In this document: positions 1,717 to 20,000 of the stretch, one piece after another
Layout: every line of letters starts with the position of its first letter
Numbering within the stretch: position 1 is the stretch's first letter
DNA from: an uncultured virus (IMG/VR IMGVR_UViG_2724679570_000003)
Taxonomy: Duplodnaviria; Heunggongvirae; Uroviricota; Caudoviricetes
IMG/VR virus record: IMGVR_UViG_2724679570_000003
Strand: one strand, 5' to 3'
Length of the DNA: 20,000 bases
Notes under the pieces: generated by a model
Told to the model about the DNA's origin: nothing
The model's input: the letters and a program-made list of their open reading frames with translations, nothing else
Database searches by the model: none
Program-made: the position numbers and the translations under genes

Positions 1717-2233
1717 TGTACATCTCCCTCATAGTTTTTCCTCCACCTTTTATAACAGGTAAGCCGTATTCATTTATAGATATAATATTTTGGTTTTCAT
1801 TAATAACTTCTTCTTGTGATATTATACAAGCTACTTGCCAGTATGCTTGTAATAAATTATCACCGCAATCTTCAAACCATTTTACATTTTGAGTAGGTGA
1901 ATTTTTATTTAAAACTAAGCCAATTGAATAACCACCAATTGTATCTAAATAATCATATATGATTTTTGAGTTTGTTTTATTCTCTATAAACCGTCTTAAT
2001 CGTTCTTCTGTTAATAGCGGTATTACTAAATCTGTTTTATAATGTATTTTCCCCTCATAATCTTCAAAATGTTTTTTATTAATAGGCACACAACCTACTA
2101 TATTTATAATGCTATCTATGTCCCAATAATCTTCAATAAATAAATCTCCAAATTCAGGTTGCCACCAATTTAAGAATACTTCTTGTATTTCTTTAGGCTG
2201 TTTTAAAAAATTCTCAGCACTTATATAATTCAC
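1700..2233 (-). CDS. hypothetical clostridial phage protein
   Basis: 177 aa ORF; start overlaps the upstream stop. Confidence 0.75.
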   Translation of the reverse strand: MNYISAENFLKQPKEIQEVFLNWWQPEFGDLFIEDYWDIDSIINIVGCVPINKKHFEDYEGKIHYKTDLVIPLLTEERLRRFIENKTNSKIIYDYLDTIGGYSIGLVLNKNSPTQNVKWFEDCGDNLLQAYWQVACIISQEEVINENQNIISINEYGLPVIKGGGKTMREMYNDEYR

Positions 2234-2601
2234 ACTATCCCACCTTTAATATTATTTATCATAATTAATTCTTTAGCATATTCAATATTATTATCAGTTA
2301 ATGTTAAATAAGAATTAAATACATTTTGACTTATCGATAATGATTGTAAAGTTTTTGTATAGTTTTTTTGATATTCACTCGCAGATTTTAGAGCTGCATT
2401 ATAATCTTCACCTTGCAAAAGCAAGGATTTTAAATACATTAAGTTTTCTTTATTAAATTGTTTTAATTTTAGTTGTTCCTTATTAGATATCATTTTTATT
2501 TCAGTAATTAAGTTGTCAATTTCAATAAGTTCTTTAACTTCTTTATTTGAATAATTAGATTTTAACTGTTTTGCTAGGAAATCCAAGTTTATTATAATCA
2601 T
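2230..2601 (-). CDS. hypothetical helical protein
   Basis: 123 aa ORF; AAGGAG RBS. Confidence 0.65.
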   Translation of the reverse strand: MIIINLDFLAKQLKSNYSNKEVKELIEIDNLITEIKMISNKEQLKLKQFNKENLMYLKSLLLQGEDYNAALKSASEYQKNYTKTLQSLSISQNVFNSYLTLTDNNIEYAKELIMINNIKGGIV

Positions 2602-2830
2602 CTCCTTTGAATATTTCTGATTTCATTATAGTAAAAGTTCCATTTTTATTACATCGCATATAACATACACAAGAACAATCATACTCATCTTGTTTGGCTA
2701 AATCTATACCTAATATATATGTATCATCACTTTTGTCTAATATTTTAAATTCTTTTGTAAATTGTTTGCTATTACTTAAAAATTTATTTATTTCATCTTT
2801 GGTATTATCAGAAAATATCTTTTTAATCAT
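2555..2830 (-). CDS. hypothetical protein with RNase H-like first-strand motif YILGIDLAK
   Basis: GAGGGTG RBS before ATG at 2830; motif seen in translation. Confidence 0.6.
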   Translation of the reverse strand: MIKKIFSDNTKDEINKFLSNSKQFTKEFKILDKSDDTYILGIDLAKQDEYDCSCVCYMRCNKNGTFTIMKSEIFKGDDYNKLGFPSKTVKI

Positions 2831-3089
2831 ATACACCCTCATCTAGTACATAATCTATTAATCCTGTTATTTCACATCTTTCAGATTTAATCCTATCAGG
2901 GTATTTACTCCAATTAATAGGTCTCAATGTTATTTGACATCCTATCTCTGAGTTAAAATCTAATTCAGTAATAGTATCAGATATTTCATTCATTATATTT
3001 TTAATCACTTGCTTTTCTATATGATTCTTATTATTGTTTACATCATAATCTATGACTGAACATAATTTCATCCTTTTAGTAGGCAACAT
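2823..3089 (-). CDS. hypothetical phage protein
   Basis: 88 aa ORF; AAGGAG RBS. Confidence 0.7.
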   Translation of the reverse strand: MLPTKRMKLCSVIDYDVNNNKNHIEKQVIKNIMNEISDTITELDFNSEIGCQITLRPINWSKYPDRIKSERCEITGLIDYVLDEGVYD

Positions 3090-3143
3090 TATTATAGTTC
3101 TCCTTTTTTTAATTATTTTATATAAAATCTAAAGTTTATATCG

Positions 3144-3455
3144 TTATTTATTTATATTTACATCATTTGAATTATCTTTTATTTTGCCAAACTCTCTATA
3201 ATACTCATGATAATTGCATTTTGGATAATTTGAACAACCTCGGAATTTACCGTACTTACCTTTTCTGGTTATCATTTTACTACCACATTCAGAACAATAT
3301 TTGTTCATATCTCCATAATCATCATATTCCTTTTCCAAATCATTCATGTTTTTTAACAAAGCTTCATATGTCCATCTAAGTATATTTTCAGATTCACCCT
3401 CATACCTAAATTCTATTATTTCTTTTAATTCCTCCCACATTTTCTTATAATACAT
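3144..3455 (-). CDS. protein with topoisomerase-type C4 zinc finger (zf-C4_Topoisom)
   Basis: CSECGSKMITRKGKYGKFRGCSNYPKC matches the CxxCG.M..R.G.yG.F.gCs.YP.C pattern. Confidence 0.8.
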   Translation of the reverse strand: MYYKKMWEELKEIIEFRYEGESENILRWTYEALLKNMNDLEKEYDDYGDMNKYCSECGSKMITRKGKYGKFRGCSNYPKCNYHEYYREFGKIKDNSNDVNINK

Positions 3456-3470
3456 CTTTACCCTCCTAGA

Positions 3471-3851
3471 CTATCTATAATCAGTTTCTTCTAGTTCTTC
3501 CGCATCATATAAACCTTGTATATAATTCTTACAATTAACTGCTTCACTTTCTTCATCGAGAATAGCCATTAAAGCACATTTATACATACAACAAAATCCA
3601 TCATAGAATTTACAATTATAACAATCTTTTTTTATATTAGGTAGCTTATTATAAATTTGATTAATACAATTTCTATAATTTTTAAGTTGAACCTTATATT
3701 TTTCACTTTTCACCACAATATTTTCAGGTACATAAGTTATTTTTACTCCATATGATTGATGCTCCAAAGTATCTTCTTTTACTTTATCAGGCTTATAAGT
3801 TTCTATTTTTAAATCTTTTTTACTTAATCCAGTTGGCAAATATCCTTTCAT
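3471..3851 (-). CDS. RF-1 (peptide chain release factor) domain-like protein lacking GGQ, with Cys-rich C-terminal module
   Basis: DLKIETY-x15-GVKITYVPENIVVK-x5-QLKN aligns with RF-1 DLRIDTY-x15-AVRITHxPTGIVV-x6-QxxN; C-terminal CYNC..CC..C..C. Confidence 0.6.
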   Translation of the reverse strand: MKGYLPTGLSKKDLKIETYKPDKVKEDTLEHQSYGVKITYVPENIVVKSEKYKVQLKNYRNCINQIYNKLPNIKKDCYNCKFYDGFCCMYKCALMAILDEESEAVNCKNYIQGLYDAEELEETDYR

Positions 3852-3868
3852 TGTTTTTTATCCCTCCT

Positions 3869-4021
3869 CTATATTAATCTAATTTTTCTTAATATTTTAC
3901 CTAAGAATGTTAGGTTCTCTTTAAAGGCTATTTTACAATACCAACATTCCCATTCTTTATTTCCATCTACATATTCAGTTTCTATCATATTTTGTTTGCA
4001 TAGTGGACATTTTTTTAGCAT
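3869..4021 (-). CDS. small zinc-ribbon protein (50 aa, MLKKCPLCKQ...WECWYC), not in ORF track
   Basis: Hand-translated; AAGGAG RBS; CxxC...CxxC. Confidence 0.7.
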   Translation of the reverse strand: MLKKCPLCKQNMIETEYVDGNKEWECWYCKIAFKENLTFLGKILRKIRLI

Positions 4022-4068
4022 AGTTATATTTTCTCCTTATAATATTTTTGTATTGTGTAGTAAAATTA

Positions 4069-4296
4069 TTATATTGTCGGATTTGTTATAGCCATCCAAA
4101 ACTTGGGTTGTCTATAACTATATTTAAAAACATCTTCATTTACATCAAAATAATAAAACCCCTCTTTTTCAAAAATAATATCACCATCAGCATATTTAAA
4201 ATAATTTTGAAGACTATAAGTTTCATTTTTTATGTCTAAACACACTAAATATTCCTTTTCATGTATCAATTTATTTTTAATATTGTCCCATTTCAT
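4069..4296 (-). CDS. DUF551-like small phage protein
   Basis: N-terminal KW..K..L, EYLV and C-terminal WM.I..P pattern; AAGGAG RBS before ATG at 4296. Confidence 0.5.
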   Translation of the reverse strand: MKWDNIKNKLIHEKEYLVCLDIKNETYSLQNYFKYADGDIIFEKEGFYYFDVNEDVFKYSYRQPKFWMAITNPTI

Positions 4297-4352
4297 TATT
4301 CTCACTCCTTCGTAATAAATTCAAATTGTAATTCATTTGATCAACCATACAT

Positions 4353-4592
4353 TTAGTTTAATTTAACTACACAATCAACATATCTACCTAAATCTCTATT
4401 TACTAATGATTCAATGTCTACAAAAGTTTCTTGTAGATAATTAATATCTGGTTTTCCTACTAATTGTTTATTATCTATTCTTACTATCTCTAAAAAGAAC
4501 ATTTTTCCTTTTATGTATTTAAAAATAATTTTATCCCCTTTATTTAGTTTTAAAAAATCTTCTTTAGTTTTTAATTCTTCAATATTTATCAT
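4353..4592 (-). CDS. hypothetical small beta-barrel-like protein
   Basis: 79 aa ORF; AGGAG RBS; LNKGDKIIF motif. Confidence 0.65.
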   Translation of the reverse strand: MINIEELKTKEDFLKLNKGDKIIFKYIKGKMFFLEIVRIDNKQLVGKPDINYLQETFVDIESLVNRDLGRYVDCVVKLN

Positions 4593-4623
4593 TTATTTCT
4601 CCTCTCTTAGAATAGTTAAATCA

Positions 4624-4914
4624 TTAGAATATATTAGATATCTCTTTCTCTTTAATTTCATCATAATTTTTAAATTGCTTGATTGAATCTATTAAAAGTT
4701 CCTTACTATAAAATTCTTGAAGAATTAGAAGTAACATATCTAAACTTATATGTCTCATTATACCCTTACCAAAATCTATAGTTAGTATTTTATTTCGTTC
4801 ATATTCTTTTCCTTGTGGAGTTGATTCTGTTAATGCAAATGGTGTACTGCTATAAAGATTATTAATAATAAATTGGTCTTTAGATGCTCTTTTTATCAAA
4901 TCTTCTATTTTCAT
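4624..4914 (-). CDS. hypothetical protein
   Basis: AAGGAGG RBS before ATG at 4914, a more likely start than 4953. Confidence 0.65.
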   Translation of the reverse strand: MKIEDLIKRASKDQFIINNLYSSTPFALTESTPQGKEYERNKILTIDFGKGIMRHISLDMLLLILQEFYSKELLIDSIKQFKNYDEIKEKEISNIF

Positions 4915-4942
4915 AAGCTTCCTCCTTTTTAAAATTAAATTA

Positions 4943-5503
4943 TCAATTTTCAATCACTTCTTTTACTTGAAAAACATAAATCATATCTATGTTTTTTTCA
5001 TCTGCAAGATATTCATGTTGAGGATTTTGGACACCTATATAACTCCCCCATTTATGCCAACGCCAACCATATTCATCTTGACTACTTTTAAATATTGGTG
5101 TCATTACAGCTATATATTTCTTTTTTTTATATTTTTCGTATTCTTGTATTTCTTTATTGCAATAATCTAATACCTGTGAAGCATTATCACATACTCCATA
5201 ATCAAATTCATTGTACTCATTTACAAATTTATAATCTGTCAAATCTTGCAAACTATGTTTCCAATTTAAATTAGATATATAGATATTGTTTATATCTTTC
5301 ATAGTATCTTTTATTGTTTTAATAGTCTTTTCTTGACCTAATTCTTTTAGCCATAATTCATAAGGGCTAAATCGGTCATTTATGTTTTTTAATTTTACTT
5401 TTTCCCAATTTATATTAGGTTCAGAATTTTTTAATTCCTCACATAAATCATTGTGTTTCTTTATTTTCTCTTCGTTATTTATTAATTTAACTAATTTAAT
5501 CAT
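4943..5503 (-). CDS. conserved phage protein with GWRWHKWGxYIG motif
   Basis: GGAGGG RBS before ATG at 5503; YGVCDN and GWRWHKWGSYIG motifs. Confidence 0.75.
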   Translation of the reverse strand: MIKLVKLINNEEKIKKHNDLCEELKNSEPNINWEKVKLKNINDRFSPYELWLKELGQEKTIKTIKDTMKDINNIYISNLNWKHSLQDLTDYKFVNEYNEFDYGVCDNASQVLDYCNKEIQEYEKYKKKKYIAVMTPIFKSSQDEYGWRWHKWGSYIGVQNPQHEYLADEKNIDMIYVFQVKEVIEN

Positions 5504-5565
5504 TTTACCCTCCAATAAATTTATTATATCTTTGAATTGTTAACTAGAAATTCTTTAATATAACC

Positions 5566-5739
5566 TTAATCGTCAAATCCTCCATCATGTGTACCTATAT
5601 AGAAATGTTCTTCATAACATTTACTACAAGCTATATGTTTAAGATGACAATTATTACTACATTCCTTACTCTTGTCACATTGTATACAACATTTGTTACA
5701 CCCAGAGGTCAACAAATTACCCTCGTTTAATTTCCACAT
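5566..5739 (-). CDS. small Cys-rich protein
   Basis: CNKCCIQC...C..C...CSKC; GAAGGGG RBS before ATG at 5739. Confidence 0.6.
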   Translation of the reverse strand: MWKLNEGNLLTSGCNKCCIQCDKSKECSNNCHLKHIACSKCYEEHFYIGTHDGGFDD

Positions 5740-5771
5740 AAAATCCCCTTCCTTCAATTACGATAAATCAT

Positions 5772-5942
5772 TTATTTTATTAAATTATTCTTTTTCATTT
5801 TAGAAACATATAATGCAGGATAAATATAAGATAAAGTATGTGCTGGTGTAAACTCTTGAATACTCCAATTTTTATACATGTTTTCAAGAATTTTATTAAC
5901 TTCCTCATCTACTTCTTTAATAATATCTTCCTTACTTATCAT
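5772..5942 (-). CDS. small hypothetical protein
   Basis: GGAGGT RBS before ATG at 5942, overlapping the end of the upstream ORF. Confidence 0.6.
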   Translation of the reverse strand: MISKEDIIKEVDEEVNKILENMYKNWSIQEFTPAHTLSYIYPALYVSKMKKNNLIK

Positions 5943-7171
5943 TTTTTGCACCTCCAATACAATAGTTCAGTATTGTAATTACTTTCATCTGGGGTGTCCT
6001 TCTTAATATAATAATTATTATATTTTATATTGATTTGATATTTATCCTTCAAATATTTGATTATAATATTAAACTTTCTATTTTTTTGTAGCTTATCTTC
6101 ATTTAATTTTACTAAAAATTCGTCTAATATAAAATGCGTTCTATTAATACCTGTTATAATTTTTTGTTCATTATTTATGTTGTATTCTAAAACCGTTTCA
6201 AATATTTTATATATTAATTTATCCATTTTTTGAAATAATTCAATTAATAAATTTTGTATTAATTCATAACAATAATCTATTTCTTCTTGTCTATCTTTTG
6301 GAGTATCTTCATGGCGAAAAGTTGGCATATGTTTATTTAAATAATCTTTAGTTAAAGATTGAAATAATTTTATTATTGCTTCATAAGTATCAAAATCTGA
6401 GAATTTAGGAAGTATTAATTCTTTTATATAGCCTCTAAAAGCCATGTGACAATTATATTTTACAATGTTGTCGTCTCCTCCTAAATAATAATATATATTT
6501 TGAAAATATAGATACACTCTACAACCTAATGTATCAACTTCCCATTTCTTTTCATTATTTGTATTGATATATGTTTCACCCCAATTTACATCTTTAATAA
6601 GGTTTGGCAAATCAAAAGAATTATCAACTATCATTTTTGATATTAAATATATTCTTTCAATCCAATCATCAGTTAAAATTATTTCATTATTTTTATTTAT
6701 TATTAAAAATTCATTTTCCAAATCATCTTGTTTATTTTTTCTTTCTCTTTCTTTTATTGCTTTTATACGCTTTTCTTCTGCAATCTGTTTTTGCCTTTCG
6801 ATTTCTTGTTGTTTTCTTAATTCTTCTGCTTTTTTACGTTCTTCTTCTTTTTGTTTTTCTTTTGCTTCTCTTAACATTGATCTCAACATATCTGTATCTG
6901 AATGCCCACAAAAACTTGATAAAGCTGTTTCATATTGTAAAATTTCTTTTTCTGTTCTACAATTTTTATATTTGCCACCCAAATAAGGATTCTCCATTGT
7001 TGTAAAAGAATCAGAAAGTAAATGGTCATAATACAAAAAAGTATTTGGATTAGTGCAATCATATACTGTAACATTAAAAAAATCATCTTGAATTTTCTTA
7101 ATCATTTTACTATTATATTCATCTCTTGCAATGCTTGACTCTAAAGCCTTTTCTATTTCTTCTATTGTCAT
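5939..7171 (-). CDS. 410 aa hypothetical protein with central charged coiled coil (about aa 98-150)
   Basis: Long ORF; AGGAG RBS; E/K/R/Q-rich helix. Confidence 0.8.
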   Translation of the reverse strand: MTIEEIEKALESSIARDEYNSKMIKKIQDDFFNVTVYDCTNPNTFLYYDHLLSDSFTTMENPYLGGKYKNCRTEKEILQYETALSSFCGHSDTDMLRSMLREAKEKQKEEERKKAEELRKQQEIERQKQIAEEKRIKAIKERERKNKQDDLENEFLIINKNNEIILTDDWIERIYLISKMIVDNSFDLPNLIKDVNWGETYINTNNEKKWEVDTLGCRVYLYFQNIYYYLGGDDNIVKYNCHMAFRGYIKELILPKFSDFDTYEAIIKLFQSLTKDYLNKHMPTFRHEDTPKDRQEEIDYCYELIQNLLIELFQKMDKLIYKIFETVLEYNINNEQKIITGINRTHFILDEFLVKLNEDKLQKNRKFNIIIKYLKDKYQINIKYNNYYIKKDTPDESNYNTELLYWRCKK

Positions 7172-8212: not shown

Positions 8213-8237
8213 ATTTTCTCTCTCCTTTCATGATTCT

Positions 8238-8266
8238 ATATTACCAAATTATTTTATATTAGTCAA
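8238..8266 (-). promoter_or_regulatory. sigma-A-type promoter TTGACT-N17-TAATAT with extended -10 TG
   Basis: -35 at 8266-8261, -10 at 8243-8238, 17 nt spacer ending TGG; AT-rich upstream region. Confidence 0.7.
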
Positions 8267-8300
8267 GCTTTAAATAATGTTTTTAAAAATTATTGCATAT

Positions 8301-8676: not shown

Positions 8677-9273
8677 TTATTTAATTATTCCTAGTTTCCA
8701 ATTCTTCCTTGTTATTGGTTTATATTGAGTATCACCTACTTCTATTTCATCTCCATTTTTAATTATTCTATTATTAAAAATTTTTGCATTTACATTTGGT
8801 ATATTCCCTTCACTATCTCTAGTAACCATAAATCTAATACAATCATGGTCAACCAATTCTATTAATCTTTTACTTCCTTTAAATAGATATCCTTTAAAAT
8901 TAGTTAATAAAGAATAACAGTAGCAATCTATATTTAAAATATCTACTATATCTGATATTTGGTTTATTTGTTCTTCTGAAAGAAAATTACATTCATCTAT
9001 AATAATTGCTTTAATATTTCCTTCAGTATCTATGTATTCCATTACTTTTGTAAAAATATTTTCATCAGTATCAATCCATTGTGCAGGAATTTTATTTCCA
9101 TTCCTTGAAGATATGTAACATTCCTCTATGCCTTCTCTAGTGTCTATTCTGCTTTTTAAGGCTAATACATTCATTTTATTTAGTTTATATGAATTATATT
9201 CTCTAATTAAGTCTTCTGATTTTCCAACGCCCATACAAGCAAATATTACGTGCAGTTTAGCTATATTAATCAC
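8677..9273 (-). CDS. tdk: thymidine kinase (TK1 type)
   Basis: P-loop ACMGVGKS, RIDTR, ISSRNG, Walker B IIIDECNFL, LLTNFKGYLFKGSKRLIEL, IEVGDTQY. Confidence 0.9.
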   Translation of the reverse strand: MINIAKLHVIFACMGVGKSEDLIREYNSYKLNKMNVLALKSRIDTREGIEECYISSRNGNKIPAQWIDTDENIFTKVMEYIDTEGNIKAIIIDECNFLSEEQINQISDIVDILNIDCYCYSLLTNFKGYLFKGSKRLIELVDHDCIRFMVTRDSEGNIPNVNAKIFNNRIIKNGDEIEVGDTQYKPITRKNWKLGIIK

Positions 9274-9917
9274 TCTCCTTTATGTAATTTATTTTCATAA
9301 TGAAATTTTAAATTGTGTAAATCTATACTTTTTTCTGCATTGTTATTTATTAAATTGTTTTGTATTTGATGAATTAGAGTGTAAAATTCTTTATGGTTAC
9401 TTACTCTTAACCCTTTCCATTTGTCATTCCAATGCTGAGAAAAAGCTACAGATATCCCGTCTTTTCTTTTCCATTCTATTAAGTTGTTTATATTGTCATC
9501 AAGCAACACTCGATTATCTCTAGCTAATAATGATTTATCTCCAGTAAACACTAAATCTTTTTCAACATTTATAAAAGGTAAATATTCTTTTATCCATTTA
9601 ACTTTTTCACTAACACAATAATCTGAATTGTATTGAGGTAAAGTTATTATTTTAATTTTAAAGCCTTTTTCATGTAATATTGTAGCAATATTTATTGAAT
9701 TATTGACAGGGCTGCTTTTATAAAAAGCACCCTTTTCTAATAATAAATTTTTAAAATACTCTTTACTGGCTTTATTACAATCACTCCACCAATATGATTT
9801 ATTGTCATTAGGTTTCATATCATCATTAAAATCCTTATTATATTTATTTATAATATATGAACTTAGATCATATAATACTTCATCCATATCATAATATATT
9901 TCTAATTGCTTAGTCAT
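9270..9917 (-). CDS. 5'(3')-deoxyribonucleotidase, NT5C family HAD phosphatase
   Basis: YDMDEVLYD motif I, EKVKWIKEYLPF, GDKSLL, LLDDN, QHWN; GAGGT RBS before ATG at 9917. Confidence 0.9.
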   Translation of the reverse strand: MTKQLEIYYDMDEVLYDLSSYIINKYNKDFNDDMKPNDNKSYWWSDCNKASKEYFKNLLLEKGAFYKSSPVNNSINIATILHEKGFKIKIITLPQYNSDYCVSEKVKWIKEYLPFINVEKDLVFTGDKSLLARDNRVLLDDNINNLIEWKRKDGISVAFSQHWNDKWKGLRVSNHKEFYTLIHQIQNNLINNNAEKSIDLHNLKFHYENKLHKGE

Positions 9918-10509
9918 CTGATACCTCACTTTCTATACTATCTTCAAAAATTTTCCATAGTTTTGTAAAACAATCTCCTAGTTTTTCATAGCAGCCTAAA
10001 CTATTTTCAATTTCTCCTTGGCAGTATTGATTTAAATAACCTACTTGATTTTTAAATGAAGGTTGATTAATATTAGGTTTAGTTTTAAATCTTATGTCAT
10101 CAGCCCACCCTACAATACCTTTATATTTATTAGGTTCATATTCTATCATAGTTTTAAATCTACTTATTTCTCCACCTACTCCTTCATCTAATGGCAATTT
10201 AAGATGTGCTAATACAAAATTACAAGTTCGTAGTTGTGAATTATCTCCTTCTGCTATCATTCCTCCTGTTATAGTAAAGTCTTCTGTATCTTTCTTATTA
10301 AAATCTGCATGTTGTGGTAAGTAATAATCTAAATTAACTTGTTCACATATATCAGCTATTAGTTCTAATCCTATTTGATCTAATTCACTAAATAATCCTT
10401 CAGATGCAATATAAACCTTTGCTTTATGTTTAAAATCATAGTTATCTATAACTTCTTGTAGTTTGTGTTCCTGAACAAATTCTTTTACTCTTTTTTTAAA
10501 GTTTTTCAT
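9910..10509 (-). CDS. nucleoside 2-deoxyribosyltransferase family protein
   Basis: VYIAS..LF, YLPQ, D..QL, DEGVGGEI (nucleophile-type Glu retained). Confidence 0.75.
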   Translation of the reverse strand: MKNFKKRVKEFVQEHKLQEVIDNYDFKHKAKVYIASEGLFSELDQIGLELIADICEQVNLDYYLPQHADFNKKDTEDFTITGGMIAEGDNSQLRTCNFVLAHLKLPLDEGVGGEISRFKTMIEYEPNKYKGIVGWADDIRFKTKPNINQPSFKNQVGYLNQYCQGEIENSLGCYEKLGDCFTKLWKIFEDSIESEVSDD

Positions 10510-10964: not shown

Positions 10965-12500
10965 TTATATTCCCATACTGCTTATTAATTTAATACCGTT
11001 TTTCTTTAATTCTTTTAATCTATTTATTTCTTTGTCATGTAATTTTTTAAAATTATTATAAGTTTCAATACATTTTTCTCTATCTATTTTATCTAATTTC
11101 TTACCTGTAACATTCATAATTAAAAATGCACTATACATATCTCTTTGTATCTTTATATCACTATTCCATCTATCTTTTAATTCTTTTTTATTATACTCAT
11201 CTGTGAAATGATTATATTGACTTGCTTTGCACTTCTTAGTATCTATCTTTAGTATTCCTAATTTCTCATATTTAAGTTTTCTACTAATCATTTCAATTAA
11301 CATTGCTGGTGCTTTGTTTGCTAAACTCTTGCCAAATCTTTTCTTTTTGTTATACTTACCATTTTTATTAATAGTGGTTTTCTTACTTCTTCTTTGCAAA
11401 CCTTTATAATTCATAGCTTCAACTAAAATTCTATTACCTAAGGATATTATATAATTAGCCAATTTTTCATGACTTTGTTTTCTGATACTAGCTTGTTTCC
11501 TTTGTATATCTCTTAATTCATTTTGTATTTTAATGTATTTATTAGATTTATACCATTTTAATTTGATTCCTCTTTTTATAGTACCATCTTCATTATAATT
11601 ATTAAGATTATTAGCTCTACGTTGTCTATCTAATTTTCTTTGCAATATTATTTTTTTATGTTCTATATTTTCAATTTTTGGACATAACTCCAATAGTTTT
11701 ACATCATATTTACTTGATATAGCAATAGTTTGAGTTCCTATATCTATTCCTACACTTCCTTGACCTATACTACCTTTTATTTCACCAGTTTGTTTATTAA
11801 TCTTTTGTGGTGGAATTCCTTCCAGTATCAATTGTACGTAGTATTTATATTTACCCCTTATTAATTTTCTAAGTATTCTACAGTATTTAACTCTATCTTG
11901 AATTGCCTTTTGTGCATACAAGTCATTATTTTTAATAATTATAGGAATATTTAATTTATTCCATTTAATCGTATTTGTATCTTTATCATATTTTAAACCA
12001 CTTTTATTCCACTTATTTTCAATAGAATTATATTGACCATATCTACTAAAATATACTTTATTAGCATCTCCATGTAATAACCTATCAAACTTACTCCATA
12101 CTCTATCAGCTATTGTTTGTGCTTCTAAGCTATTTATATTACTTTTAAAATGTTTATACATAGGTTTTATATCTTCATAAAGTAAATATTGTGATAGACT
12201 ATACTTTAAACATACTTCTTCTAGCTGTTTATACAACCATTTTCTTTGTTTTTCTAAAGACTTTTTAATCTTTTCATTGTCTGAATTATGATATTTTTTA
12301 TTAATAGGATTTAATTGTTTTTTAATTTGTTTATATAGTTTAGATTCCATCATAAGATTATATCTTTTTAACACTTTTCCTGTTAAGGCATTAGATATAT
12401 TTCTTGCTATCTCCAACCTTTTATTAATTATATCTTCTTGATATTTTTCTGTATGTAATGACAGAGTTAATACATAACTCGGAGTTTTATTTTTCTTCAC
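10965..12500 (-). CDS. tnpB: RNA-guided endonuclease TnpB (IS200/IS605), about 511 aa
   Basis: RuvC-I GIDIG, RuvC-II LVEAM, RuvC-III QRDMYSA; YYVQLILEG; AAGGAAG RBS before GTG at 12500. Confidence 0.9.
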   Translation of the reverse strand: MKKNKTPSYVLTLSLHTEKYQEDIINKRLEIARNISNALTGKVLKRYNLMMESKLYKQIKKQLNPINKKYHNSDNEKIKKSLEKQRKWLYKQLEEVCLKYSLSQYLLYEDIKPMYKHFKSNINSLEAQTIADRVWSKFDRLLHGDANKVYFSRYGQYNSIENKWNKSGLKYDKDTNTIKWNKLNIPIIIKNNDLYAQKAIQDRVKYCRILRKLIRGKYKYYVQLILEGIPPQKINKQTGEIKGSIGQGSVGIDIGTQTIAISSKYDVKLLELCPKIENIEHKKIILQRKLDRQRRANNLNNYNEDGTIKRGIKLKWYKSNKYIKIQNELRDIQRKQASIRKQSHEKLANYIISLGNRILVEAMNYKGLQRRSKKTTINKNGKYNKKKRFGKSLANKAPAMLIEMISRKLKYEKLGILKIDTKKCKASQYNHFTDEYNKKELKDRWNSDIKIQRDMYSAFLIMNVTGKKLDKIDREKCIETYNNFKKLHDKEINRLKELKKNGIKLISSMGI

Positions 12501-12518
12501 AATATTCACTTCCTTTCT

Positions 12519-12662
12519 ATAAATAATACAAGAACTCAATTGACTATTTCAAAAGATTTGAAAAAGCAACTAGAAGAGATAGCTAAAAAACAAAATAGAA
12601 GTTTTAATAATTTAGTTATCACTATATTACAATCATATGCAGGAAATTCATCCCATGACTAA
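12519..12662 (+). pseudogene. ribbon-helix-helix (Arc/CopG-like) ORF inside the IS, lacking a canonical N-terminal start
   Basis: INNTRTQLTISKDLKKQLEEIAKKQNRSFNNLVITILQSYAGNSSHD*; stop lies in the left-end hairpin loop. Confidence 0.7.
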
Positions 12663-16229: not shown

Positions 16230-16439
16230 TTAATCTAATGTAATAAACACCTTACCATTTTCATATTTTGCATCAATCCCTGCCCCACTAACTATTTCTA
16301 AAATAGTTTTAGAATGTTGTTCAAACATCTCATTATTTACTGGTTCAAAGCTCTCTTTCCTTTCGTTGTAAGCATTGATAATTTCATCTGCTGACGGACT
16401 TAATTTCTCCATTAACATTATTTGCTCCATAAAATTCAT
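16230..16439 (-). CDS. small hypothetical protein (69 aa)
   Basis: AAGGTGG RBS before ATG at 16439. Confidence 0.65.
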   Translation of the reverse strand: MNFMEQIMLMEKLSPSADEIINAYNERKESFEPVNNEMFEQHSKTILEIVSGAGIDAKYENGKVFITLD

Positions 16440-16506
16440 AATAGTTCCACCTTTCCAAAATATCTCGTGTACTTGCTTGTACACTGACTTGATTTATTGA
16501 TTTTAT

Positions 16507-16539
16507 ATATAGACTACATATAAACAATGTAGTCTATAT
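16507..16539. repeat. perfect 13-bp inverted repeat with 7-bp spacer, ATATAGACTACAT-ATAAACA-ATGTAGTCTATAT
   Basis: Seen directly; overlaps the tnpC stop codon. Confidence 0.85.
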
Positions 16540-16908
16540 TTTTTCATATAATTTACCTCTAAGAACTTCTAATTGTTCTTTGAGCTTTTTATTTTCTTGT
16601 TCCAATTCTTTAATTTTTTTATCTTTAGCCATTATAATAATGTCTTTAGATTTTGAAGTTTTATCATATTTGGCTCTTTGGTTTATAGTTTGACTTACTT
16701 GTTTATCTCTAAGTTCTTCAATTCTTGCTTTTACTTCTTTGTTGTTGTAGAGGAATGTCTTAGACACTCCACTGATTGTTGCCACACTATTAAAGTTAAT
16801 CTTTTCTCCATTAAGTGAAAGTTCTCTAATGGCTTTATCAACTTTTTCTAAAGTAATTTTTGTTTTCTCTTCTGCATACTTTTTTAATCCTTTAGTATTT
16901 CCAGCCAT
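16534..16908 (-). CDS. tnpC: Tn554-like TnpC (DUF6262 family, HTH plus coiled coil)
   Basis: KINFNSVATISGVSKTFLY...I..LR motif; C-terminal coiled coil; third gene after two recombinases. Confidence 0.85.
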   Translation of the reverse strand: MAGNTKGLKKYAEEKTKITLEKVDKAIRELSLNGEKINFNSVATISGVSKTFLYNNKEVKARIEELRDKQVSQTINQRAKYDKTSKSKDIIIMAKDKKIKELEQENKKLKEQLEVLRGKLYEKI

Positions 16909-16910
16909 TG

Positions 16911-18872
16911 TTAAACATCCTCCCTTGAAGCTCCATTTTTATGGAGTATCTTTTGTTCTGTAACTCTTTGTAGTGTATTTTCAAGCAGTTTTAAGTATGT
17001 TTTATTTTTCTCAGCCCAAAGTTCTCTACCACATCTTTCACTAACTTCAATTTGCTTTTTAACATGGTCAATTTCTTCCTCATATTCTGGAATATTCTCA
17101 GTTGTGGTGCAGAAACTTGCACAAGTTAAACAATGATTCATTTGTTGCTTACAAGGTAGTTTAGAAGGCTTAAAACATACACCGAAAGGCACTCTTACTG
17201 CATCTAAATTCTTTTTAACATATTCATATCTTATAAGATTTTCTCCATCATCAGAGTTTAAGTCTACTTGTTCAAATTTATTTGTTTCAGTATTAACTCT
17301 AAATAAGCCTAAATCCTCGGTGTTTTTCCATTTTTCATAAAGAATATTTTCACTAACAGTTGCATAATGGACTGTCATTTGTAGGCTCTGATGTCCTAAT
17401 ATTTGCTGTATAATGCTAATACCCATACCTTGTTCTATATACTCTTTAGCCCTTGTATGCCTTAGTGAATGAAGTCTAAAATGATATAGTTCGCCATTAA
17501 CATCTCTAATATCTTTTTTATTTATTAGCCTTTTAATAGTTAATAATAAAGCTGATTTTGATAACGGTTTTCCTTTTGATTTCCCTTCATAAATATTAAA
17601 TAAATACTTTTTAGGGTTATTTTCTTCTGTACTCGATTCTTTAGTCTTATCGATAGATTTTCGAACCATTTCAGCAACTTTATTTCTTATAGGAATTTTA
17701 AGTTGTGCTATACCTGTCTTAGTTATTTCACCACAAAGATAATAGTTATATTTTTGTTCTTTGCTATTCCAAATCTGTTCTAAACAATTGTTATATCTAA
17801 GGTTTAATATATCAGTTCCACGCCATCCTGTTTCACGAAGTAAGATATAAATAGGTATAAACTGTGGTCTATCTAAATCCATAATATTATTATCTAATTG
17901 CTTTAATATAGGCTCTGGAATAAATTTAATTCTCTGTAATCTATTCAAATCTCTTTCTCTTGAAGGAATATCATTTTCAAATATTAAAAGTGATACTTCC
18001 TTATTAGGTGCTTTATCATATTGAGCTATTTGTATATATTCTAAAAATGTTCTAATAAATGATATGAATTTTTGCCAATATGAAACATTATTTGTTGAAT
18101 GTTTAGAAGAAATTTTAAATATATACTTTTCAATATCTTCACGATTTAAATTTTTGACAAATCCATCTTTATATCCTATTTCATAAAATATATTAAAAAA
18201 CTCATTGATAACAGTTAATATATTAAAACAATAACTAAAAGATTTTTTAGTTATTATTGTTCTCAGGTAATCCTTAACCGTATTCCTATAAAATTGAGGT
18301 ATTTTTGTAAAGTCCAATCTTGAAATTTTTCTATCCTGACTTGCACTAATTCTAACTCCTTTAATATTCTTTGCGTACCATATGTCTTTTTCAGTTTCTT
18401 CTCTATCATCATAAAAATCTTTGATAAAATCTACAATAGAAGTCATTATTCCATTGCATAATTGTAAACTACTCTGAGTGTTTATATTTAATTCAGTCAA
18501 ATAACTACGCCATTTAATTAGAGTTTTTTCATTTTTAATTTCATTTAAAGTAACTATGTTTTTGTAGTATATGTCAAAAAAATTTCCCATTGGAGTTAAT
18601 CTATAACTTACATTTAACAAATGTGATTTTTTAATGTATTGTTCTTTAACATAAAATAATACATAGTATTTCACTTCATTTTTTATATAATCATTCTTAA
18701 AAGAAGAAAAATCAATATATTTTGAACTATAAATTTTTTTACCTATAAAAAATAATTCTGTAAAATCCCATTTATCATTTTCTAACCAATATCCATCATC
18801 TTGTTTTAAATATTCAATTATTTCATCATATTTACTTTGTTGACTATTTTTTATCAGTTGTAAATTATCCAC
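16911..18872 (-). CDS. tnpB: Tn554-like TnpB tyrosine recombinase
   Basis: ETGWR, K in ITKT, HSLRH, LGH, Y in TVHY; C-terminal C..C..CxxC..C cluster. Confidence 0.9.
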   Translation of the reverse strand: MDNLQLIKNSQQSKYDEIIEYLKQDDGYWLENDKWDFTELFFIGKKIYSSKYIDFSSFKNDYIKNEVKYYVLFYVKEQYIKKSHLLNVSYRLTPMGNFFDIYYKNIVTLNEIKNEKTLIKWRSYLTELNINTQSSLQLCNGIMTSIVDFIKDFYDDREETEKDIWYAKNIKGVRISASQDRKISRLDFTKIPQFYRNTVKDYLRTIITKKSFSYCFNILTVINEFFNIFYEIGYKDGFVKNLNREDIEKYIFKISSKHSTNNVSYWQKFISFIRTFLEYIQIAQYDKAPNKEVSLLIFENDIPSRERDLNRLQRIKFIPEPILKQLDNNIMDLDRPQFIPIYILLRETGWRGTDILNLRYNNCLEQIWNSKEQKYNYYLCGEITKTGIAQLKIPIRNKVAEMVRKSIDKTKESSTEENNPKKYLFNIYEGKSKGKPLSKSALLLTIKRLINKKDIRDVNGELYHFRLHSLRHTRAKEYIEQGMGISIIQQILGHQSLQMTVHYATVSENILYEKWKNTEDLGLFRVNTETNKFEQVDLNSDDGENLIRYEYVKKNLDAVRVPFGVCFKPSKLPCKQQMNHCLTCASFCTTTENIPEYEEEIDHVKKQIEVSERCGRELWAEKNKTYLKLLENTLQRVTEQKILHKNGASREDV

Positions 18873-20000
18873 TTATCTTTCCCCCTCATTATAAATATCC
18901 AAATCTAAATTAGGTTGAGTTTTTTCAAACTCTCTTGTTATATTTTCATCTGAGGGGTGTATATAAGTATTTATAGTGGTATAAATATTTTTGTGACCAG
19001 CTCTTATTCTTAAAAGTTCTGGTTGCCATCCTGCTATTCTAAGAACCGTCAAAGAACTATGCCTAAACATATGTGGTGTAACATATATTCCTGTTTTCTT
19101 TTTTAATGTTCTAAATAAATTATCAACATCAATATAATTCATAGCTTGATTTTTATTACTACCATTTATTTTTATGAAAATATGATTAGTTTCTACTTCT
19201 TCATTATGGTATTCTGATATATATTCCATAAACATATTAGCTAAATTCTGTGATATATCTATTCTTCTTGGACTTGATACAGTTTTAATTTCAGCATTAT
19301 TTTCAAGTTGACCTCTATCTTTAATATCAATAACCATATCACTTATATCAATATCTTCAATCCATAATGACAAGGCTTCGCCTATCCTCATTCCTGTTTC
19401 ATAAAGCAATGATAGCAAAAATTTATCTCTTAAATTATTACAAGCTCTAACGAGCATTTCTACTTCTTGTTTAGATAATGTCTTAGGCTTACTTTTAGGT
19501 ACTTTTAATTTAAGGATATTACTGGTTACTTTTTTCTGTTCATAAGCTATCCCATATAGGAAACCTTTGAAGCTTCTATTTGGAGTAGATACAAATTTTT
19601 TAAGTCTATCTGATATGTTATTACTATATTGTTCATGCCTTAAAATATAGTCATAAAACATTAATACAGTATTTACTATAATATTTACTGTTCTTGGACA
19701 CCTTGCCATATCTACAGGTGTTACAGGTATTACATTTAAACTCTTATAAGGATTCTGTAGCCAATTCACAAACAATGATAAATCATCAATAGTAACCTTC
19801 TGAAAATTTAAATCTCTTTGCTGTAGATATTCAAAGTAAAGTTTTAGGTGTTGACAATACATTCTTAAAGTATTTCTTGCATAATTAGTATTATCCTTAA
19901 ACCTTATGAATTTTAATATTGGTTCTATTGGTAATCCTAAATCATCTGCAACAAAGTACCTCTCTTTTCCTTCCTCTGTTCTAGCCTTTACTACTTCCAT
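18873..20000 (-). CDS. tnpA: Tn554-like TnpA tyrosine recombinase
   Basis: ETGMRIGE, IKT, PHMFRH, AGH, Y in INTY; N-terminal SAM-like region ARNTLRMY. Confidence 0.9.
   Translation of the reverse strand: MEVVKARTEEGKERYFVADDLGLPIEPILKFIRFKDNTNYARNTLRMYCQHLKLYFEYLQQRDLNFQKVTIDDLSLFVNWLQNPYKSLNVIPVTPVDMARCPRTVNIIVNTVLMFYDYILRHEQYSNNISDRLKKFVSTPNRSFKGFLYGIAYEQKKVTSNILKLKVPKSKPKTLSKQEVEMLVRACNNLRDKFLLSLLYETGMRIGEALSLWIEDIDISDMVIDIKDRGQLENNAEIKTVSSPRRIDISQNLANMFMEYISEYHNEEVETNHIFIKINGSNKNQAMNYIDVDNLFRTLKKKTGIYVTPHMFRHSSLTVLRIAGWQPELLRIRAGHKNIYTTINTYIHPSDENITREFEKTQPNLDLDIYNEGER

Follow-up and report, generated by a model that had tools for sequence, protein, structure and literature searches.

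A short gene on the minus strand of a 20,000-nucleotide stretch of DNA from an uncultured virus (IMG/VR record IMGVR_UViG_2724679570_000003; the whole stretch is referred to below as the window) encodes a protein that unites a homologue of the RF-1, or GGQ, domain of class I peptide chain release factors (RFs) with a small module bearing four conserved cysteines (Cys4). The open reading frame (ORF) occupies positions 3471..3851 in the ORF list, opens with ATG and specifies 126 amino acids (aa) plus a stop; it contains exactly the peptide that an earlier model's reading of the DNA letters (the sequence-only reading) had quoted, and it is a genuine gene. A Shine-Dalgarno sequence, GGAGGG, can be read at 3862..3867 of the same strand, 10 nt 5' of the ATG and just past the stop codon (3869-3871) that ends the 50-aa gene upstream. 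The encoded protein falls into two parts of opposite charge: a basic N-terminal domain (aa 1-73; 3633..3851, minus strand; isoelectric point, pI, 9.4), which by sequence is an RF1/RF2-type homologue of the RF-1/GGQ domain, and an acidic C-terminal module (aa 74-126; 3474..3632, minus strand; pI 4.3) belonging to the phage protein family phrog_20311. Alignments delimit a degenerate 'GGQ loop' at aa 20-34 (KPDKVKEDTLEHQSY; 3750..3794, minus strand), within which both HMMER and MAFFT place the GGQ tripeptide on K25-E26-D27 (3771..3779, minus strand), in agreement with the sequence-only reading that KED had replaced GGQ in a loop of unchanged length.

Searched on its own, the protein matches the Pfam RF-1 family (PF00472) with E=3e-5 and 24.4 bits, residues 9-73 covering profile positions 7-72 of 116; this score lies under the curated Pfam cut-off of 35 bits, a point against the assignment as long as a single sequence is considered. 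The family phrog_20323, annotated 'RF-1 domain peptide chain release factor', is matched at E=1.1e-3. When the same single sequence was compared with the PDB, the best chain was RF2 (9fy1_8, E=0.025), and release factors made up 17 of the 19 sequences at E<=10, the remaining two being at chance level. The HMMER alignment runs without gaps from query residues 10-70 to RF2 residues 234-294. A non-circular test of homology was obtained with a profile built exclusively from seq­uences lacking GGQ, namely seven N-domains (that of the window, those of the relatives P0001-P0005 and the C-terminal part of P0017), which was run against all PDB sequences. RF1 (2fvo) was matched at E=1e-8, and every one of the 44 PDB sequences at E<=1 belonged to the release-factor family (RF1, RF2, mtRF1, mtRF1a-like, C12orf65/mtRF-R and PrfH); ArfB/YaeJ and ICT1 were absent from these 44 matches. 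Thus, while the single-sequence match to RF-1 is weak, the similarity at the level of the family is far beyond chance, and residues 9-73 are, as judged from these profiles, homologous to domain 3 of RF1/RF2. The N-domain is of the RF1/RF2 type and not of the ArfB type.

The relatives vary in how readily they are recognized. P0017 scores 45.5 bits with Pfam RF-1, over the 35-bit cut-off, P0001-P0004 reach 26-28 bits and P0005 matches no Pfam family, while two small GGQ-less proteins ('minis'), P0026 and P0031, match NCBIfam prfA at E of ~1e-12. A precomputed PF00472 tag is attached to P0001-P0004, and one database relative carries the name 'peptide chain release factor 2'. The window protein does not have the make-up of a full-length class I release factor: NCBIfam prfA and prfB align to it over model positions ~211-290 only, with 21-28 bits against cut-offs of 370-423, just eight residues precede the RF-1 match, and neither PCRF nor any other Pfam family is matched at E<=10.

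Structure prediction points in the same direction. A first AlphaFold2 (AF2) run, made with 21 sequences that included no RF rows and of which six covered the N-domain, gave a poor mean predicted local distance difference test score (pLDDT 46), and still displayed a strand at 14-19, a strand at 35-40 and a helix at 60-68, in the same order as in the later model. The second alignment had 46 rows, comprising the query, five fused relatives, two GGQ-less minis, six GGQ-bearing minis, ten true RF domain-3 segments and 22 C-module proteins; it yielded a model with pLDDT 79 and a predicted template modelling score (pTM) of 0.67, in which strand 14-19 is followed by a long loop (20-34), strands 35-40 and 45-49, helix 55-69 and a compact C-module. 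The presence of true RF rows and GGQ-bearing minis inclines this second model toward the RF fold, which detracts from its value as independent evidence; their inclusion is justified by the homology established with the GGQ-less-only profile. Confidence within the N-domain core is lowest in the region of the GGQ loop (block 21-30, pLDDT 64). In a Foldseek search of the PDB, all of the matches listed were release-factor-family chains superposing over ~60 residues at ~2 A, the best being RF2 (8p16_6; E=3.2e-4, 62 columns, root-mean-square deviation 1.7), and TMt reached 0.86 with a 63-residue fragment (6c4h_v). An aligner independent of Foldseek, VIA, placed RF1, mtRF1, RF1, PrfH, mtRF-R, PrfH, RF2 and YaeJ at ranks 1-8 (Z 8.9-6.6), with generic alpha-beta-beta-beta-alpha domains, for example double-stranded RNA-binding domains (dsRBDs), ranking below these rows at Z<=6.5. 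The turn between beta2 and beta3 in the model comprises four residues (41-44), as is typical of RF1/RF2. The beta-loop-beta-beta-alpha fold of the GGQ domain is, in the predicted structure, present in the N-domain. Hence the RF-1 homology proposed in the sequence-only reading is upheld by profile (E=1e-8 for the family) and by two fold searches that both rank release-factor chains first. Its gap-free alignment holds for RF1/RF2 over residues 10-70, but does not extend to ArfB, which has an inserted helix and is missing from the 44 sequence matches.

The conserved catalytic motif has been lost. We compared the GGQ-less set column by column with 19 GGQ-bearing sequences (13 full-length RFs from a genome scan and six minis), a comparison in which the conservation of columns 13-19 is partly by construction, since the comparison set was retrieved with the pattern DLKIET[YF]. 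Positions G23, G25, G26 and Q27 are 95-100% conserved in the GGQ-bearing sequences, all 19 of which possess the GGQ tripeptide, and are missing in five of five GGQ-less lineages. The loops that take its place are KVKED in the window family, DLKKE with a three-residue insertion in P0005, LSDPR in P0017, RMKVD in P0026 and a shortened GCK in P0031, and they have no common motif. In the query the loop retains the length found in RF1/RF2 and is the most variable part among close relatives. Around it the scaffold persists: V36, K/R37, I38, T39, P42, N58 and L/I66 are retained across the GGQ-less set and Q55 in three of its lineages, and the query itself keeps D13-L-K-I-E-T-Y19, V36-K-I-T39, P42, Q55 and N58. 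Two substitutions recur, in that position 62, where every GGQ-bearing sequence has Ala, is occupied by Cys in four of the five GGQ-less lineages, and position 35, Ala in 95% of the GGQ-bearing set, is Gly in three lineages and Ser in P0026. Shared changes of this kind (A62C, A35G) hint that the GGQ-less forms may have a single origin.

Scans with the same profile recovered GGQ in 13 of 13 genome relatives and 27 of 27 metagenome relatives, with no GGQ-less form among them; as all of these carry GGQ, its loss is specific and derived. Among 12 small proteins found in a collection of 5.8 billion proteins, eight lack GGQ (P0001-P0005, the fragment P0025, P0026 and P0031) and four have it. Pattern scans made on viral contigs with the domain alignments returned only four close relatives and two GGQ-bearing minis. 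The GGQ-less state is, in the sequences surveyed, rare. One further candidate, H47, the sole phage match spanning at least 80% of the GGQ-less mini P0026, was rejected because it proved to be a regular full-length RF1, on a faecal scaffold of unverified status.

According to passages of PMC5799190, the main-chain amide and side chain of the GGQ glutamine position the hydrolytic water, on which basis the loss of peptidyl-tRNA hydrolysis is a firm deduction; catalysis has very probably been abandoned. GGQ is missing in every relative of this lineage, and given this consistency the catalytically dead derivative envisaged by the sequence-only reading is a sound conclusion. One could suppose that the protein is still an active peptidyl-tRNA hydrolase employing chemistry other than that of GGQ, given that the scaffold and Q55/N58 have been retained; with both glycines and the glutamine gone from all five lineages, replacement loops that share no motif and the role in placing water that the same passages ascribe to the glutamine, such an activity is exceedingly improbable.

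Set beside known systems, the N-domain is closest to domain 3 of RF1/RF2 (the GGQ or peptidyl-tRNA hydrolase domain, PF00472), with which it shares ~62 gap-free residues, the fold, the short beta2-beta3 turn and the signature residues D-L-K-I-E-T, V-[KR]-I-T, P42, Q55 and N58. It differs in having K-E-D for GGQ, in lacking the codon-recognition domains 2/4 (with their PxT or SPF motif), PCRF and domain 1, and in being 126 aa long, against ~360, with a Cys4 module attached. By the GGQ test the query fails as a functional release-factor domain, yet on sequence grounds it clearly descends from one. Intact mini release factors are established cargo of phages and plasmids, and the phage 'RF-1 domain' minis (Mycobacterium phage Bxz1 type; phrog_20323), for which 257 records exist in phages, 205 of them in Mycobacterium phages, are likewise small, phage-borne proteins with the same domain and a KKDLKIETF start. 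Unlike the query, those examined (P0023, P0024, P0027-30 and the metagenome minis) keep GGQ, have a pI of ~10 throughout and lack the Cys4 module. The GGQ-bearing minis recovered here from viral and metagenome contigs (76-130 aa; L005 4986-5351, L006 5001-5357 and the metagenome loci L059/L061 and L063) have the N-terminus MSKELLFS.TKKD[LF]KIETF and a basic C-terminal extension, and those of L005/L006 and the metagenomes are ~46-51% identical to Bxz1-type 'RF-1 domain' proteins.

ArfB/YaeJ and ICT1 also combine, within a small protein, a GGQ-type domain and an appended C-terminal part that decides targeting, and are matched structurally at Z 6.6. Passages of PMC3950681 describe a helix, alpha-i, that they have inserted between beta2 and beta3, and a tail of basic character that occupies the empty mRNA channel; GGQ, helix and basic tail are all missing from the query. 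Release-factor relatives that have lost GGQ are already known, as is the RF-1 tag in databases. They include plant PrfB3/mtRF2b and an extra ICT1 of ticks (reported in part of PMC3472500), as well as Balon, and those studied act by binding: PrfB3 is linked to stabilisation of petB mRNA in sections of PMC5897788 and PMC3472500, and Balon, a relative of aeRF1, is described in portions of PMC10901736 as occupying the ribosomal A site and peptidyl-transferase centre during ribosome hibernation. All of these are full-length, or nearly full-length, cellular proteins, Balon having moreover the unrelated aeRF1/Pelota fold, whereas the query is a lone domain 3 on a mobile element, joined to a Cys4 module. 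Full-text literature searches, whose scope excluded most subscription journals and supplements, returned no description of a GGQ-less RF-1-domain protein from bacteria, phages or plasmids, nor of the Cys4 module.

The C-terminal module is an entity of its own. Residues 74-126 match phrog_20311 end to end (E=4.9e-18; profile positions 2-54 of 54). Over 21 sequences C77, C80 and C88 never vary and C107 is kept in at least 90%, bearing out the cysteine cluster noticed at first reading; the pattern C-x2-C...C...C holds equally in a 13-sequence alignment of C-modules. Other conserved positions are D84, G113 and L120, together with a tail of the form G-x-[YF]-x4-LE-x2-[DN]-Y. With 12 Asp and Glu against six Lys and Arg (pI 4.3), these 53 residues are acidic and form an independent domain family, so that the suggestion of a substitute for the basic ArfB tail has to be abandoned. 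An exhaustive search of representatives gave 19 matches at E<=1e-3, of which two were full-length (P0001 and P0005), one covered the N-domain only (P0017) and 16 the C-module only, most of the latter being free proteins of 53-67 aa. P0005 is a full-length fusion of the same architecture, 45% identical to the query. Elsewhere the module follows other N-termini, either zinc-ribbon-like CxxC pairs (P0007, P0012, P0038) or a beta-rich domain (P0014, P0036), and it occurs in P0018, a 329-aa protein named nucleoside triphosphate (NTP) pyrophosphatase by its source. Free copies with 54% identity are present in Bacillus phages Evoli, CAM003, Anthony and Vinny; the Evoli copy is gp8, a 54-aa protein encoded within a run of small hypothetical genes, and was also the top match of a BFVD structural search (TMt 0.89). 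These phrog_20311 proteins thus agree with the last 53 aa of the query over the whole profile and in predicted fold, differing in that they stand free while the query carries its module behind an RF-like domain. The C-module profile had no significant match among Pfam families or PDB sequences, the ESM Atlas returned only unnamed viral clusters, below 0.9, for the C-module and no usable match for the N-domain, and PADLOC gave no match for the RF-like protein or its neighbours. From its distribution, aa 74-126 is a separate, portable acidic module that usually exists as a stand-alone phage protein of ~55-65 aa. The cysteine pattern makes it probable that the module binds metal, most likely through a single, zinc-type Cys4 site.

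The union of the two modules admits a 'Rosetta-stone' interpretation, according to which the acidic Cys4 module binds RF-type GGQ domains and is tied in the query to a dead one, so that the free C-modules of phages would bind domain 3 of host RF1/RF2. Both modules are found separate as well as fused, their charges are complementary (pI 9.4 versus 4.3) and the pTM of 0.67 for the two-domain model suggests a defined mutual arrangement. The several unrelated N-termini that precede the C-module, however, are better accommodated by a general adaptor than by an RF-specific binder, and we consider this interpretation improbable.

The gene is maintained. In every copy seen, at least eight with 80-100% identity, the reading frame is intact, and the ratio of nonsynonymous to synonymous substitution rates (dN/dS) is 0.17-0.40 for the whole gene, with 0.22 in the N-domain and 0.11-0.33 in the C-module, values that indicate purifying selection. 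A decaying remnant of a phage mini release factor, devoid of present function, might be imagined from the lost catalytic loop, the mosaic flanks described below and the absence of the gene from the nearest virus record, G001. Intact frames throughout, constraint on both modules, the strong ribosome-binding site and an architecture preserved in the 45%-identical fusion P0005 make decay very improbable.

Within the gene, the sole differences from loci L002 and L004 form a patch at gene nt 260-320 (window 3532-3592; aa ~87-107, inside the C-module), with 14 mismatches in 60 nt, while the 720 nt preceding it are identical (L002 4540-5260, a span that takes in the gene's first 260 nt). This distribution suggests a short gene-conversion tract, possibly derived from another C-module copy. 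A recombination breakpoint at the domain junction, considered for the window and L002, was dropped once mapping had placed the differences at gene nt 260-320, within the C-module.

A two-module, non-enzymatic binder carried by a phage-plasmid is the explanation that best accommodates these data as a whole, although we advance it tentatively. Module 1 (aa 9-73) derives from domain 3 of a class I release factor and has kept the beta-loop-beta-beta-alpha scaffold while exchanging the whole G-x-GGQ loop for a charged, variable one; with that loop replaced, no peptidyl-tRNA hydrolysis by the known mechanism is expected. Module 2 (aa 74-126) is a portable acidic mini-domain with four conserved cysteines. 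RNA, or a partner in translation termination, would dock on the surface of the basic RF-derived domain, with the Cys4 module providing a second contact. Judged from sequence, binding without enzymatic activity is most likely the working mode, and a scaffold under purifying selection whose catalytic loop has been discarded points to a binding role for an RF domain on a mobile element.

Whether the binding partner belongs to the translation apparatus is a separate matter. The case for such a target draws on the RF signature residues that lie beyond the hydrophobic core (Q55, N58), on the basic charge of the domain and on the precedent of GGQ-less RF relatives that act by binding. Several observations weigh on the other side. 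Passages of PMC3950681 report that ArfB reduced to its GGQ domain (delta101-140) stays 100% soluble and fails to bind ribosomes, so an RF-like domain deprived of any known targeting part need not reach the ribosome, and targeting would need to come from elsewhere; the replacement loop of the close family is acidic (KED, KKD, EED), which would make insertion into the RNA-rich peptidyl-transferase centre unfavourable; a GGQ-less domain terminates the helix-turn-helix (HTH) protein P0017, which suggests a module of general use in binding or sensing; and the partners to which the C-module is fused are several and unrelated. Owing to these four points a target in translation is possible but rather doubtful, and the effect on termination or ribosome rescue raised in the sequence-only reading is left unsupported. 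To the same side of the balance, as regards the two-module account at large, belong the differences in loop sequence between lineages, by which no shared new site is defined, the metal site, which is deduced from the conservation of its residues, and the dispensability of the gene for its element, which follows from its absence in G001.

The same evidence lends itself to a fold repurposed without any link to translation, as an all-purpose module for binding RNA or protein or for sensing, serving phage-plasmid regulation, nucleic-acid handling or anti-defence, an alternative that is conceivable without being probable. P0017 (290 aa) is instructive here, being an HTH protein of the XRE type (its HTH_3 and capH-like matches are weak) with a GGQ-less RF-1 domain, above the Pfam cut-off, at its C-terminus; its architecture suggests that a dead RF domain can act as the sensor or partner-binding module of a transcription regulator. 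Repurposing also fits the attachment of the C-module to unrelated partners such as the NTP pyrophosphatase, the position of the gene among small zinc-ribbon and nucleotide-metabolism genes, the failure of the isolated GGQ domain to bind ribosomes (again in the passages of PMC3950681) and the match of dsRBD-type RNA-binding domains to the model at Z 5-6.5. These last scores, however, lie below the RF rows and in the range that the tool assigns to common arrangements, and most lineages retain Q55 and N58, signature residues outside the structural core that lie in the beta/alpha loop, a part of the RF active-site region in the description given by sections of PMC3950681.

A more specific form of the translation-directed binder would be a decoy on the termination machinery, in which the dead RF domain either occupies the large-subunit A site and peptidyl-transferase centre without release (a Balon-like silencing, or an anti-rescue or anti-termination effect) or sequesters some partner of domain 3 of RF1/RF2. 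In that event the widespread Cys4 mini-proteins of phrog_20311 in Firmicute phages would form a class of RF-domain binders not recognised before. We deem this unlikely. Should the target prove to be the ribosome or host release factors, a mobile element would possess a new way to tune termination or ribosome rescue, and the orphan phage family phrog_20311 would gain its first functional handle; should the target be unrelated, the protein would show clearly how an essential translation-factor domain can be reused for generic binding.

The element that carries the gene is best described as a C. botulinum phage-plasmid of ~200 kb. Among named records the closest are plasmids of Clostridium botulinum, non-mobilizable and 197-215 kb in size; three of them contain the gene under the annotation 'hypothetical protein', and deposited phages gave no nucleotide-level match. 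Four relatives in IMG/VR lie on viral contigs of 130-200 kb. The nearest virus record, G001, measures 197 kb, is rated 99% complete by CheckV and has a terminase-like ORF (Terminase_6N, 26.8 bits, above the cut-off); single-family searches with portal PF04860 and sheath PF04984 found no match in G001, a result that is not evidence of gene absence. The designation 'phage' in the sequence-only reading needs amending to phage-plasmid: the relatives are classed as viral in IMG/VR, but the closest named records are plasmids of ~200 kb.

Comparison with G001 reveals a cassette exchange between shared flanks. Window 3152-3868, holding the RF-like gene and a 103-aa gene with a topoisomerase (Top1)-type zinc ribbon, corresponds to G001:C1:88602-89448 (L012 1791-2528), where a single 245-aa HTH protein is encoded; the RF-like gene is a mosaic accessory gene. 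A relationship between this 245-aa protein and the HTH-RF fusion P0017 was considered and rejected (BLASTP E=0.77). Two small cysteine-rich proteins flank the RF-like gene. The 50-aa CxxC...CxxC zinc-ribbon protein (3869-4021, minus strand; phrog_30325, E=2.7e-22) precedes the slot in every relative, including G001, whereas downstream no conserved partner was observed, some relatives having the 103-aa protein (3144-3455, minus strand; C4 zinc ribbon PF01396, E=2.6e-12) and others an unrelated protein of 116 aa. The three genes form a tight co-directional run, the 50-aa gene ending 17 nt upstream of the RF-like gene and the 103-aa gene beginning 15 nt downstream with its own GGAGGG. All convincing genes of the window lie on the minus strand, and its G+C content is ~25%; a promoter scan was at background level (37 sites against 35 expected) and no minus-strand terminator was found in window 2000-6000. 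For window 2800-4400 a look for RNA evidence returned no entry.

Further features were noted elsewhere in the window. An intergenic stretch at 8213-8300, between a 71-aa gene and a PspC-domain gene, has matches of ~30-65 nt at 78-94% identity to at least eight scattered sites of G001; it resembles a repeat dispersed between genes of the element and might be a regulatory or terminator-like sequence that these sites have in common. A nucleotide-salvage cluster at 8677-10509 encodes a thymidine kinase, an NT5C-type 5'-deoxynucleotidase and a nucleoside 2-deoxyribosyltransferase-like protein, and is followed at 10965-12539 by a 524-aa transposase-like ORF (phrog_506, E=4.6e-44), which another C. 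botulinum plasmid matches at 78% on the nucleotide level. Homology to G001 ends at 16455. Window 16433-20000 constitutes a mobile unit in its own right, encoding a DUF6262 protein and a pair of tyrosine recombinases, one of 653 aa and one of 375 aa that runs past the window end. Its sequence agrees at 99.9% with that of a different C. botulinum plasmid and at ~80% with parts of records from C. beijerinckii, Acetoanaerobium and Clostridioides. Passages of PMC10868621 describe a mobile element, with tyrosine recombinases numbering two, that moves between a C. botulinum chromosome and plasmids.

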